A stretch of DNA of 64,000 nt from Escherichia phage FP43, in the sequence record MN648445. One strand, given 5' to 3'. Positions 12,604 through 25,574 of the stretch are shown here, piece after piece. Within the stretch, counting starts at the first letter, position 1, and every line of letters starts with the position of its first letter. The position numbers were made by a program, and so were the translations under genes. The notes beneath the pieces are model-generated. The model worked only from the letters and a program-made list of their open reading frames with translations, was not told the DNA's origin and did no database searches.

Positions 12604-12891
12604 ATGAAAACCTATAAAGAATTTATATCACCTGTTGCTAACGTTTCTACTCTGACTGAAGCAACCCTTACTTCCGAAGTTATTAAAGCAAATAAAGGAC
12701 GTGAGGGTAAACCAATGATTAGTCTGGTTGATGGTGAAGAAGTAAAAGGTACTGTTTACTTAGGGGATGGATGGTCTGCTAAGAAAGATGGCGCTACTGT
12801 TGTTATCTCTCCGGCCGAAGAGACCGCACTGTTTAAAGCTAAGCATATTTCTGTAGCTCAGCTTAAAATTATTGCAAAAACTCTTCTGTAA
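12604..12891 (+). CDS. Internal-protein-like capsid-targeted protein
   Basis: N-terminus MKTYKEFI matches the capsid-targeting leader of T4 internal proteins; ipI position after 57B. Confidence 0.6.
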   Translation: MKTYKEFISPVANVSTLTEATLTSEVIKANKGREGKPMISLVDGEEVKGTVYLGDGWSAKKDGATVVISPAEETALFKAKHISVAQLKIIAKTLL

Positions 12892-12959: not shown

Positions 12960-13223
12960 ATGAAAACCTATAAAGAATTTATCGCTGAATCTCAATCTTC
13001 TACTCTGTCAGAGAACTACGAATCATTCTCTTACAACAACGACCATGCAATGTTCTACGACCGAAACATCGGTACTTACGTCCATGTATGGGGTGTTAAA
13101 GATGGTAATGTAGTTGTTAAGAAAAACTCTAAAGAAGGCAACGGACGAGGCCAGGTAAAAATTACCAGCAAGAAAGCTATCCAAGCTTACGTCGATTATG
13201 TTAAACGCGAAGCTGGTATTTAA
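12960..13223 (+). CDS. Internal-protein-like capsid-targeted protein (second copy)
   Basis: N-terminus MKTYKEFIAE; tandem with 12604..12891. Confidence 0.6.
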   Translation: MKTYKEFIAESQSSTLSENYESFSYNNDHAMFYDRNIGTYVHVWGVKDGNVVVKKNSKEGNGRGQVKITSKKAIQAYVDYVKREAGI

Positions 13224-14729: not shown

Positions 14730-14804
14730 GGCCCTGTAGCTCAATGGGAGAGCTGTCAGCTCATAACTGATAGGTAGCTGGATCGAAACCAGCCAGGGTC
14801 ACCA
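14730..14804 (+). tRNA. tRNA with CAU anticodon (elongator Met, or Ile2 if C34 is modified)
   Basis: Hand-folded cloverleaf: acceptor GGCCCTG/CAGGGTC, D-arm GCTC/GAGC, anticodon stem GTCAG/CTGAT with loop CTCATAA, T-arm GCTGG/CCAGC, encoded CCA. Confidence 0.7.
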
Positions 14805-14807
14805 ATT

Positions 14808-14884
<77 letters not shown>

Positions 14885-14902
14885 ACTTCAAGTGAGGAAA
14901 AT

Positions 14903-15247
14903 ATGAAAGGCAATGTTTATCTGGTAGTTCATGATTTAACGTTTTATTTTAACGAACGTGAAACAGTTATTTCCGATAGGTTAATTAATTCGCTGTATCA
15001 GCATGCTGATTATGTTTATTTTCAAAATGAATTCGGACATTGGAAGTTTCTTAAAAACCGTTCTGGGTTAACTAGTTTTGAATACTTTGACCGTAAAGAC
15101 CTTTTAAACGAAATTCCATTACAACATCGGTTCCAGAAACGCGAATCATTATATTATTGCCGTCATATACCAAACGCAGAATGTGCCTATGAAGCGATTA
15201 ATCTATGGCGTCGGCGTCGAGAGCAAATTGATGATATGCCAAAATAA
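14903..15247 (+). CDS. Hypothetical protein
   Basis: 114-aa ORF from ATG 14903 with GAGGAAAA RBS directly after tRNA-Arg. Confidence 0.45.
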   Translation: MKGNVYLVVHDLTFYFNERETVISDRLINSLYQHADYVYFQNEFGHWKFLKNRSGLTSFEYFDRKDLLNEIPLQHRFQKRESLYYCRHIPNAECAYEAINLWRRRREQIDDMPK

Positions 15248-15249
15248 GA

Positions 15250-15549
15250 AGCCGGGTCGCTACCGGCAAGTCGTCGGACTGATGTTCCCTGAGTAGGGAC
15301 TGGTCTTAATAAATCTTTATGATTCGTTAATATCCCCTTACATCACAGCAGAAACGGCGCACAGAATTATCGATTCGAGGAAATATCTTTGCCGTAAGCC
15401 GAGTAGCGTTTTTGACGGGACGTTCGGATATGGTAGAGATATGGCCTTTTAAAAATATTGAGTAGCGTCAACTGCTTAATAACCGGGTTCGAATCCCGGC
15501 GTTTCGTACAAACACTTACCTAGTAGGTGGAAACCCCGACAAGGTATAT
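15250..15549 (+). ncRNA. Candidate small stable RNA(s) downstream of the tRNAs
   Basis: About 300 nt without a convincing ORF; several hairpins and a T-arm-like GGGTTCGAATCCCGG; ends at a strong terminator; T4 has small RNAs C and D in its tRNA region. Confidence 0.3.
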
Positions 15550-15579
15550 AGCCCCTTCCGAAAGGTTGGGGCTTTTTTT
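15550..15579 (+). terminator. Rho-independent terminator
   Basis: AGCCCC-loop-GGGGCT stem followed by T7. Confidence 0.75.
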
Positions 15580-15580
15580 G

Positions 15581-15588
15581 TATAAATA
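15581..15588 (+). promoter_or_regulatory. Late promoter (TATAAATA)
   Basis: Exact octamer about 35 nt upstream of the 15624 ORF. Confidence 0.6.
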
Positions 15589-15623
15589 TAGTAAACAATA
15601 AACCTACTTTCTAAGGACCATCA

Positions 15624-16250
15624 ATGTATACTTTTAATGAATTTTTAGCCGAAACGGAAGTAATCACCGAAGCCGGTGTACGTATGACAAAAGAGAAATG
15701 GCAAGCTGCTTACGATGCTATTTCTGGTACAAAAACTAGTACAGAGTTTTTCAAAAACGTTCAAGCCATGTACGGTATCGACACTTCCAGCCAAAAAGAA
15801 TATTACAGAGCTTCTAAAGCATTCAAAGATATTGTTAGTGGTGGTGTTTCTGCTAAATCTGGTTCGCCTAAAGTAAAACCTGCTCCTACCACTCCTAAAC
15901 CTGCGACCCCTAAAGCAGTAGCAAAACCTGAGCCTAAGCCGGAAGTAAAAGCAACTCCTAAAGCTCCTGCTCTTAAGTTTGATACTTCTAGCCTGGAAAA
16001 AAAATATAAACAACTATCTTCGCTTGTTCGTGATATTGAATCTGATACATCTTCACTCGTTCGTGAATTCAATAGTCTTCGTAATGGCCAACATATCAAC
16101 AACCTTGATACCCCAGACCTTTATCGTCTTTATTTGACTATCGAAGGTTTGAAGTATACTCAACCACTTCATGATGAGATTAAAGAAAAACTTCGACAAG
16201 CAGGTCGTTTGGCTGCTGACGCTGCTCAGTATGCAAAAACTCGTAAGTAA
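15624..16250 (+). CDS. Internal-protein-like protein with Pro/Lys-rich linker
   Basis: N-terminus MYTFNEFLAE resembles the capsid-targeting leader; low-complexity PKVKPAPTTPKPATPKAVAKPEPKPEVKATPKAP; late promoter upstream. Confidence 0.55.
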   Translation: MYTFNEFLAETEVITEAGVRMTKEKWQAAYDAISGTKTSTEFFKNVQAMYGIDTSSQKEYYRASKAFKDIVSGGVSAKSGSPKVKPAPTTPKPATPKAVAKPEPKPEVKATPKAPALKFDTSSLEKKYKQLSSLVRDIESDTSSLVREFNSLRNGQHINNLDTPDLYRLYLTIEGLKYTQPLHDEIKEKLRQAGRLAADAAQYAKTRK

Positions 16251-16253
16251 AGA

Positions 16254-16273
16254 ATGGGGACTTCGGTCCCCAT
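16254..16273 (+). terminator. UUCG-tetraloop hairpin at gene end (terminator or stability element; no U-tract)
   Basis: ATGGGGAC-TTCG-GTCCCCAT perfect 8-bp stem. Confidence 0.4.
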
Positions 16274-16302
16274 TAGGGGGTCTATAACTTACTGAAAAAG
16301 TT

Positions 16303-16340
16303 GTTTACTTCTTCCCTAGATGTGTTACTATAGAACCTAT
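16303..16340 (+). promoter_or_regulatory. Early-type promoter
   Basis: GTTTAC 16303..16308, spacer, TACTAT. Confidence 0.5.
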
Positions 16341-16361: not shown

Positions 16362-16865
16362 ATGAGTCTTTACACTGAACTGAATAAAAAATCTGAAGAA
16401 TCTGCTGAAACTATTTTTAAAAACGTGCAAAAGCGTATTTTAGAAAAGATGTATAACGCTGCATCTAAAGGTGAAAAATCTTGCCAGTTTCCGATGAGGT
16501 GTTCTTCTGATTTATGCGCAAATACTATTGAATGGTTGGAAAGTGAAGGTCTTACAGTAGAGAAAAACCCGGCGACTTCTATTGACAGTGAATCATATAT
16601 TAGTATTTCTTGGGATAAATCAAGGGTAGAAGAGAAAGATGGTGATTGGGTTGTAGATGTTAAAACTTCTGATGGTGGACGTTCTGTTGAAGTTTCAGCT
16701 GTAGTTAAAGGTACCCACGAACAAAGGACTTGGGGTTGGGGTGGTGAAGAAAAAGAAATTGTTCTTAGTGTGATTGCCAGGTCAACTAGTAATAAAATTG
16801 CACAAAGCATCATTGACGCTGCAATTGCTGAAGCAGAAAAAATTTGCAAAATTAAAAATAAATGA
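16362..16865 (+). CDS. Hypothetical protein
   Basis: 167-aa ORF from ATG 16362 with GAGGAAAA RBS. Confidence 0.45.
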   Translation: MSLYTELNKKSEESAETIFKNVQKRILEKMYNAASKGEKSCQFPMRCSSDLCANTIEWLESEGLTVEKNPATSIDSESYISISWDKSRVEEKDGDWVVDVKTSDGGRSVEVSAVVKGTHEQRTWGWGGEEKEIVLSVIARSTSNKIAQSIIDAAIAEAEKICKIKNK

Positions 16866-23998: not shown

Positions 23999-24487
23999 AT
24001 GAATATATTTGAAATGCTTCGTAATGACGAAGGTCTTAGACTGACTTTATACAAAGACACTGAAGGCTTTTGGACGATTGGCATAGGCCATTTAGTAACA
24101 AAGAACCCGTCTTTAGCCGTAGCTAAAGCTGAACTTGACAGAATGATCGGTCGTAAATGCAACGGTACAATTACCCTTGATGAGGCTGAAAAGCTATTTA
24201 ATGAAGACGTTGATAAAGCTGTCCGCGGAATCTTGGGTAATGCTAAACTTAAACCGGTATATGATTCTTTAGATGCAGTTCGTCGGTGTGCATTGGTCAA
24301 TATGGTCTTCCAAATGGGTGTAGCAGGAGTCGCCGGTTTTACTAATTCTCTTCGTATGCTTAAACAGAAACGTTGGGATGAAGCGGCAGTAAATCTAGCT
24401 CAATCTAAATGGTATCGTCAGACACCTAATCGCGCGAAACGCGTAATCTCAACATTTAAAACAGGAACTTGGAAAGCGTATATATGA
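23999..24487 (+). CDS. e: Endolysin (T4-type lysozyme)
   Basis: [32 protein letters not shown]...; near-identical in pattern to T4 lysozyme as recalled. Confidence 0.92.
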
Positions 24488-24765
24488 AAACATATAGTGA
24501 ATTTTTATCAGAATCTATTCTTAACGAAGCTACTGACACATTTGCAACTAAGCTAGGTGCAGCTTTGGTTGAAGCTGAAAGTCTATTAGCACGTATTTCT
24601 GAACTTGCTAGTAAGATAGATACTCGCAAATTTGAACGTACCAGCGATATCGCTAAGCTTGAAGCCTTGTTGCGTATGTGCGATAAACCAGAAGAAATCG
24701 CTAAGAACGGCTCGCTGATGAAACAACGTCTTGAAAAATATATTTCAGGCGCTTCAGAAAAATAG
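24484..24765 (+). CDS. Internal-protein-like capsid-targeted protein
   Basis: N-terminus [10 protein letters not shown]; ATGA overlap with e stop; ipII/ipIII neighbourhood of T4. Confidence 0.6.
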
Positions 24766-25244: not shown

Positions 25245-25574
25245 ATGAAAACATATCAAGAGTTTATCACTGAAGTTACATTATCTGCGGAACAGAAAGC
25301 TGCTATCGAAGAAAGTAAAAATCCCAAAGTAACATATAAAGTAAATAGTAAAGGCGTTTTTGATGGCTTGGTTCAAGACCCTGAATTGAAAAAAGCTCTT
25401 TCTAAAACTAATGCGTACTTTGCTCCTAAATTTAACACAGCAGGTGTACTTATTGGATTGGATGTATTCAACTCTAAAGGTGTTCTATCTAATGCCTTTG
25501 GCTATGCCGCTAACAAAATTACCAAAGCCGCATGGGAATCCAATACCAAACAAGCTCAAAAGCCTAGAGTATAA
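25245..25574 (+). CDS. Internal-protein-like capsid-targeted protein
   Basis: N-terminus MKTYQEFITE, exact match to the recalled T4 leader MKTYQEFIAE with one substitution. Confidence 0.65.
   Translation: MKTYQEFITEVTLSAEQKAAIEESKNPKVTYKVNSKGVFDGLVQDPELKKALSKTNAYFAPKFNTAGVLIGLDVFNSKGVLSNAFGYAANKITKAAWESNTKQAQKPRV

Follow-up and report, generated by a model that had tools for sequence, protein, structure and literature searches.

A Predicted T4-Type Internal Head Protein Encoded Beside the tRNA Cluster of a Mosigvirus Phage

Introduction

Ip1, Ip2 and Ip3, the internal proteins of bacteriophage T4, share their leader alone, and each of them inhibits a distinct GmrSD-type IV restriction enzyme (PMC12373910). 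The DNA of RB69-type phages bears arabinosyl-hydroxymethylcytosine (arabinosyl-hmC) and is attacked by GmrSD-type enzymes (PMC6024577). In the capsid-targeting sequence (CTS) of T4 IPIII, residues 4 and 7 are determinants of targeting and residues 8 and 10 of processing, and the gp21 protease cleaves after L/I-x-Glu (PMC9026906). IPIII remains active in the host cytoplasm when its CTS is missing (PMC9391042). Here we describe a gene for a 208-residue protein in a stretch of 64,000 nucleotides from Escherichia phage FP43 (sequence record MN648445), which we refer to as the window. The source phage is an RB69/JS09-like T-even phage (Mosigvirus), and the gene belongs to phrog_2280, a family of unknown function in the PHROGs database. 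Judging from its sequence, we consider it likely that its product is an internal head protein of the T4 type, which would be packaged in the head and injected with the DNA.

Results

Leader and protease motif

The protein begins with MYTFNEFLAE, which is identical to the CTS of T4 IPII and IPIII (MKTYQEFIAE) at 6 of 10 positions and similar at 9 of 10, with a BLOSUM62 score of 33. A scan for such leaders was performed on all Met positions in the six frames of the window that begin an open frame of at least 40 aa (n = 690), giving a mean score of −1.7 with a standard deviation of 7.3. The leader of the protein ranked fifth of the 690 positions (z ~4.7), and the next position that does not belong to an internal-protein-type open reading frame (ORF) scored 20. 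The four Met positions that outscored it, at 12604, 12960, 24484 and 25245, are those of the other internal-protein-type ORFs of the window. Additionally, the leader retains the T4 determinants, with an aromatic Phe4, Phe7, Leu8 and Glu10, and among the phrog_2280 relatives residue 4 is aromatic and residue 7 is Phe or Ile. The likeness of MYTFNEFLAE to a capsid-targeting leader, which had been proposed in a first-pass annotation of this DNA, is borne out by the rank of the leader and by the determinants that it retains.

We found that the leader region carries a conserved protease motif. In an alignment of 11 sequences, Glu16 is invariant within (I/L/V)-x-E-(A/S), and across ~50 relatives (I/L/V)-x-Glu16 followed by Ala is the best-conserved protease motif. 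At least one L/I-x-E occurs in the first ~20 residues of every full-length relative (28/28). Because Glu16 is invariant with Ala or Ser after it, and the position of LAE10 is deleted in some members, the propeptide MYTFNEFLAETEVITE is probably 16 residues long and cut after Glu16 (ITE, then Ala), possibly with an additional cut after Glu10. The T4 propeptides measure 19 residues in IPI and 10 in IPII and IPIII, and the predicted 16 residues are nearer to IPI. The only other L/I-x-E in the protein is IKE188, which is not conserved, and therefore the mature chain should persist as an internal protein does, unlike a scaffold protein, which is cut to pieces.

The window has four further CTS-bearing ORFs on the + strand, which are listed with the other features in Table 1. 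Two of these four fall in families that carry labels without a function (phrog_13302 and phrog_3966), and thus they too are unannotated as internal proteins.

Table 1. Features of the predicted internal head protein gene, its flanks and the other CTS-bearing ORFs of the window
Feature	Position	Strand	Basis or remark
Intrinsic terminator, AGCCCC..GAAA..GGGGCT + T7 tract	15550..15579	+	Closes the tRNA/rnaD-rnaC unit; abuts the late promoter
T4-type late promoter box TATAAATA	15581..15588	+	Sequence; one base after the terminator
Shine-Dalgarno AAGGA	15613..15617	+	Sequence; 6 nt before ATG 15624
Coding sequence, 208 aa, predicted internal head protein precursor	15624..16250	+	ORF list; phrog_2280 member
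Propeptide MYTFNEFLAETEVITE, residues 1-16 (predicted)	15624..15671	+	CTS; L/I-x-E motifs LAE10 and ITE16
N-terminal three-helix domain, residues 17-74	15672..15845	+	Constant family module; W26, G51, Y60 and A66 (nearly) invariant
Disordered Pro/Lys/Ala-rich linker, residues 75-118	15846..15977	+	Lysine the only basic residue; net positive
C-terminal three-helix domain, type A (FDTSSL...), residues 119-208	15978..16247	+	AlphaFold2, alignment
Hairpin of 9 bp with UUCG tetraloop	16253..16274	+	3 nt after the stop codon; without U-tract
Early-promoter-like GTTTACT...TACTAT	16303..16331	+	16-17 nt spacer; for the next gene; downstream edge of the late cassette
IPI orthologue	12604-12888	+	87% identical to T4 IPI; phrog_4363
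87-aa ORF, starts MKTYKEFIAE	12960-13223	+	phrog_13302, unknown function
93-aa ORF after gene e	24484-24765	+	phrog_3499, internal head protein
109-aa ORF after denV, starts MKTYQEFITE	25245-25574	+	phrog_3966, unknown function

Domain architecture

A structure model was built with AlphaFold2 from an alignment of 29 sequences. In this model the leader (residues 1-18) is disordered and is followed by an N-terminal domain whose helices fall within residues 23-72, with a predicted local distance difference test (pLDDT) score of 82-89. This domain is 81% identical to its counterpart in Dhakavirus and 45% identical to that in Karamvirus. The C-terminal helices, at residues 122-153, 164-177 and 180-207, have pLDDT values above 90, and residues 74-111 between the two domains have values below 50. 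The first-pass annotation had set a C-terminal helical domain apart from the leader by a 35-residue Pro/Lys-rich linker; the helical domain is recovered in the model as three helices, and the linker is present and of low pLDDT, but its length comes to ~39-44 residues (about 75-118). The mature protein would have a mass of 21.3 kDa, an isoelectric point (pI) of 9.73 and 25 lysines.

The core of the linker, GSPKVKPAPTTPKPATPKAVAKPEPKPEVKATPKAPALK, contains 11 Pro, 9 Lys and no Arg, for a net charge of +7. All 29 aligned relatives have such a linker, which spans 24-53 aa with 14-30% Pro, 17-26% Lys, 0-1 Arg and a net charge of +3 to +10, and its sequence identity among these relatives is ~30%. 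A composition that stays constant while the sequence diverges suggests that a physical property is what is selected. Solid-state nuclear magnetic resonance of T4 found that the DNA phosphate contacts of the internal proteins are made by lysines only (PMC3012670), which makes it reasonable to suggest that the linker could track along DNA.

Family, distribution and modularity

The protein matches phrog_2280 over residues 1-203 and profile positions 1-178 of 178 (E = 2.1e-58), and searches of Pfam, NCBIfam and PHROGs found no functional family for it; PADLOC was not searched. One search for homologues returned 138 phage records and another, for a 157-aa Tequatrovirus member, returned 512, placing the family in more than 600 sequenced T-even genomes. 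Every row that we inspected was labelled "hypothetical protein", as were 60 of 60 sampled from the 512 Tequatrovirus-type records. A profile search of 5.8 billion proteins yielded 51 clusters and an exhaustive hidden Markov model search of 1.8 billion representatives yielded 21, and judging by their source names these matches belong to T4-like phages. Proteins of 98-100% identity are encoded by CEV1, AV116, JK42, ST0, JS09 and HX01; of these, ST0 is classified as Mosigvirus JS09, and its copy of the gene is 99% identical. Close and moderate homologues were found in Mosigvirus, Dhakavirus (JS98 orf135), Winklervirus (CHI14), Karamvirus (PG7), Yersinia phage fHe-Yen9-01 and Klebsiella phages, always just 3′ of the tRNA cluster.

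Family members differ in how their domains are combined. In Kanagawavirus and Jiaodavirus, the family leader, N-domain and linker are joined to an unrelated C-domain, which we call type B. In further members the N-domain is a different one and the C-domain is of type A or type B, or else the family N-domain is joined to a third kind of C-domain; distant recombinants (P0054-P0064) are among the evidence for such replacement. Many Tequatrovirus phages (teqhad, RB32, RB51, wV7, HY01 and others) encode the 157-aa form, which has a different N-domain, in the same genomic slot. RB69 has a divergent allele in this slot, and its intact form (P0064) is 188 aa long. The locus behaves like the known internal protein loci, being a hyperplastic slot with allelic replacement and domain swapping.

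Three observations concern copies of the gene in other records. In RB69 (NC_004928; 11429-11991, minus strand), the overlapping ORF149c and ORF148c together make up the one intact 188-aa member, and the frameshift in the RB69 reference comes either from an error in sequencing or from genuine decay into a pseudogene. In Klebsiella phage PKO111 (NC_031095; 1495-2079), a 194-aa type B member is unannotated in the RefSeq record. The neighboring 170-aa "vertex head subunit" ORF of PKO111 looks as if the start of gp24 had been joined to sequence from elsewhere, so that the assembly or the annotation may be at fault. Finally, Yersinia phage fHe-Yen9-01 (NC_055716) has two family members or fragments in tandem (74291-74500 and 74513-75079), where a Tequatrovirus-type N-terminal module lies just downstream of a full-length 189-aa member.

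Late promoter and genomic setting

The late promoter box TATAAATA is placed 43 nt ahead of the start codon. The window holds five copies of this octamer on the + strand, and 6.3 are expected per strand from composition. The octamer alone is therefore not significant in such AT-rich DNA. Of ten homologous loci from eight genera, six have the exact box and four a box with a single mismatch, and in all of them it is located 38-46 nt before the ATG. The case for a late promoter, which the first-pass annotation had also placed here, is thus made by positional conservation and not by the count of the octamer.

The order of genes near the locus is that of the T4 map, and in the direction of transcription it reads 4, 2, 3, 1, 57A, 57B, ipI and tRNA.4-.2. 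It continues toward the gene and past it with the tRNAs, the stable RNAs, the e.x genes, nudE, e and denV. The tRNA/stable-RNA unit, ending in rnaC, is directly upstream of the gene and the e.8/e.6 block is downstream. T4 does not have the gene, and its interval from rnaC to e.8 is a 285-bp non-coding gap, which is probably why the family went unstudied. In most T-even genera, the rnaC-e.8 slot is held by phrog_2280.

The terminator that precedes the late promoter folds at −16.6 kcal/mol (z = −3.15), and none of 200 shuffles was equally stable. Its hairpin is also found upstream of the homologous gene in ST0, JS98, teqhad and UGJNEcP3. The unit that it closes contains tRNA-Met and tRNA-Arg (14730-14884), followed by a stretch (15250-15525, + strand) that is more than 90% identical to T4 rnaD (species 2) and rnaC (species 1) and that includes a tRNA-like T-arm, GGTTCGAATCC. 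This stretch matched no Rfam family and received no ARAGORN call. Between tRNA-Arg and rnaD there is a 130-aa ORF with a TTG start (14855-15247, + strand), the 5′ end of which overlaps tRNA-Arg (14808-14884); an internal Met is probably its true start, and by position it matches RB69ORF150c (345 nt).

Downstream junction

The gene ends at a UUCG hairpin, as the first-pass annotation had noted, and this hairpin has a 9-bp stem. It folds at −15.5 kcal/mol (z = −2.35 vs shuffles) and is conserved across five genera with two compensatory pairs; among its carriers are Mosigvirus, Dhakavirus, Winklervirus and a Klebsiella phage. Because it has no U-tract, it is not a canonical intrinsic terminator, and a scan flags it on the opposite strand only. 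Most likely, the hairpin is an element for RNA 3′-end formation or stability and also the stem-loop of a junction like the promoter-early stem-loop (PeSL) cassettes of T4-like phages. The T4/PST PeSL promoter consensus is TTTACW-N17-TAYWAT (PMC4122927). The early-promoter-like element downstream of the hairpin is similar to this consensus, but it scored under threshold in a generic sigma-70 scan. It is followed by the Shine-Dalgarno sequence GAGGAA of the next gene, whose ATG is at 16362.

A (T)AGGGGGTYTA box directly follows the hairpin (16274-16284, + strand) and is kept in four genera (loci L001, L005, L006 and L007). From the sequence, GGGGGU could pair with the 3′ arm of the hairpin (GUCCCC), which would give a mutually exclusive alternative hairpin. 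We also considered TAGGGGGTYTA as a repeated PeSL box, and rejected this, as the window has two copies vs 0.94 expected and the sequence is not enriched.

Comparison with T4 head proteins

ST0, which is of the same species as the source phage, encodes gp20 (portal), gp67, gp68, gp21 (protease), gp22 (scaffold), gp23 and gp24. The ST0 gp23 contains FLTE/AEIGG, with the slash marking the cut, which we take to be the T4 gp23 cleavage site. If so, the protease is expected to have the same specificity as that of T4.

The mature protein is nearly matched by T4 IPIII*, which has a mass of 20.4 kDa, a pI of 9.65 and 25 lysines. The protein as a remote homologue of IPIII or IPII was rejected, as BLASTP and hhalign aligned the leader alone, with an hhalign probability of ~1%. 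We also considered the protein as a functional substitute for IPIII, given the match in size, pI and lysine count and a window in which no IPIII homologue was found. This idea was rejected, since JS98, AnYang and S143_2 have an IPIII gene as well as a phrog_2280 gene.

Discussion

For packaging, the position of cleavage, injection, contact between linker and DNA and a role against defence, we infer the following course. The gene would be transcribed late from its own TATAAATA promoter, and the CTS of the precursor would dock onto the gp22 scaffolding core during prohead assembly. A gp21-type prohead protease would cut the propeptide after L/I-x-Glu, most likely at Glu16 (ITE/AG) and maybe also at Glu10, and the mature protein, of ~21 kDa and pI 9.7, would be left free within the head. 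The DNA would be packaged around it, with the lysine-only Pro/Lys/Ala linker probably running along the DNA phosphates. At infection the protein would leave the head together with the DNA and enter the host cytoplasm, where its helical domains would act ahead of phage gene expression, most plausibly against host defence. This last step we put forward tentatively, at somewhat less than an even chance, for a protein that is otherwise an internal protein as proposed. The exchange of C-domains between genera fits an arms-race effector, and the main alternative is a mainly structural or DNA-condensing role.

Several points weigh against an internal head protein. Residue 2 of the leader is Tyr, not Lys, and it is K, L, I or Y among the relatives. 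Neither the protease gene nor the scaffold gene is contained in the window, and both were checked in the same-species ST0 only. The mature part has no sequence or profile similarity to T4 IPI, IPII or IPIII, and fold and profile searches showed no likeness to IPI* or to any known inhibitor structure. The compact shape of IPI* has been suggested to help it pass in folded form through the ~30 Å portal (PMC9026906), and the protein described here is unlike IPI* in having two domains and an extended linker. Foldseek against the PDB returned nothing with E < 1, only generic helical hairpins, a fold search of BFVD matched phrog_2280 family members only, and a sequence-profile search of the PDB found designed coiled coils only. 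As the fold searches yield no more than generic helical hairpins, they support no particular activity. A literature search found neither virion proteomics nor any paper naming the phrog_2280 family.

The protein could instead be a prohead core or assembly accessory, like gp67, gp68 or IPIII on its morphogenetic side, that is brought to the core by the same leader but serves head assembly or, as a histone-like charge neutraliser, DNA condensation and is not an injected effector. This would be consistent with a linker that is basic, lysine-rich and conserved in composition, with a size, pI and lysine count near those of IPIII*, which is tied to head morphogenesis and co-purifies with gp22, and with coiled-coil-like C-terminal helices that could oligomerise. 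However, the absence of the gene from T4 and its divergent or chimeric alleles in relatives are the pattern of an accessory gene for host interaction, it co-occurs with IPIII in the three phages named above, and core proteins have several cleavage motifs in their interior, which this protein lacks. We judge this explanation to be unlikely.

It is very improbable that the gene encodes a late protein that stays unpackaged in the cytoplasm, such as a DNA-binding or regulatory factor, and that its N-terminus does no more than resemble the CTS. The departure from the T4 consensus at position 2 would agree with such a protein, and a late promoter is not in itself a sign of a virion protein. However, the leader and the L/I-x-E followed by Ala are kept in members whose N- or C-domains have diverged or been swapped, so that selection appears to act on the leader itself, and within the window such leaders are confined to internal-protein-type ORFs. 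A TonB-like rigid spacer of an envelope or periplasmic protein, or a histone H1-like nucleoid tail, has next to no chance of being correct, since the weak matches that would suggest it, to NF008084 (TonB; 17.3 bits, E = 0.0034) and PspC, are compositional only, score far under the curated cut-offs of 315 (TonB) and 500 bits and are restricted to the low-complexity stretch 80-122, and since the protein has no TonB C-terminal domain and no signal peptide or transmembrane segment was seen on reading the sequence by eye; TonB homology is effectively refuted.

We suggest that the protein is most likely an unannotated addition to the CTS-targeted internal proteins of T-even phages. The first-pass annotation had raised the possibility of a packaged, extended protein, and the sequence-level tests made here support that reading. 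Internal proteins are the earliest phage proteins in the host cytoplasm, and a further CTS-bearing family would, if true, add candidate anti-defence effectors and host-range determinants. For many carriers of the family, the host of isolation was a pathogenic or clinical strain of E. coli, Klebsiella, Enterobacter, Shigella or Yersinia. Annotation would improve, because all inspected copies carry the label "hypothetical protein", and the leader is one more natural CTS variant on which T4-style protein packaging technology could draw. A more speculative proposal, which we regard as rather unlikely, is that phrog_2280 represents an unrecognised and widespread class of modular injected T-even effectors, with a constant leader, N-module and Lys-Pro tether and interchangeable C-terminal "warheads". 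The absence of the gene from T4 would explain why such a class went unnoticed. If the proposal is true, the warheads (A, B and further types) would each counter a different first-line host defence, for example nucleases that act on DNA with arabinosyl-hmC or glucosyl-hmC.

Among described systems, the PeSL cassettes of T4-like phages (Arbiol 2010; Comeau 2014, PMC4122927) resemble the downstream junction in the succession of stem-loop, early-type promoter, Shine-Dalgarno sequence and next ORF, and in their location in a hyperplastic region with ORF exchange. The junction differs from them in that the gene is a late gene with a terminator and a late promoter on its 5′ side, in that the spacer of its promoter counts 16-17 nt and the generic sigma-70 scan is silent, and in the conserved GGGGGTYTA box after the hairpin, of which we found no description. 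Within phrog_2280, which is exemplified by JS98 orf135, RB32ORF133c and the RB69-type P0064, members in Mosigvirus, Dhakavirus, Winklervirus, Karamvirus, Kanagawavirus, Jiaodavirus, fHe-Yen9-01 and many Tequatrovirus share the slot, the leader and the linker, and the allele of the window has the longer family N-domain together with a type A C-domain.

The protein is like T4 IPI, IPII and IPIII in its capsid-targeting leader, its L/I-x-E motif and its late promoter box, and like IPIII* in having a basic mature form of near-equal size, pI and lysine count. As with the T4 internal proteins, its gene is a non-core gene of a hyperplastic region whose alleles are swapped between phages. Unlike those of T4, it is located between rnaC and e.8, and not at the ipI or the e/denV locus. 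IPI* is a single compact domain, whereas this protein combines a helical domain, a disordered Pro/Lys/Ala linker and a swappable helical C-domain. The packaging mechanism would not be new; what sets the family apart from the known internal proteins is a bipartite, linker-containing modular architecture, which is unusual, and a very wide distribution.

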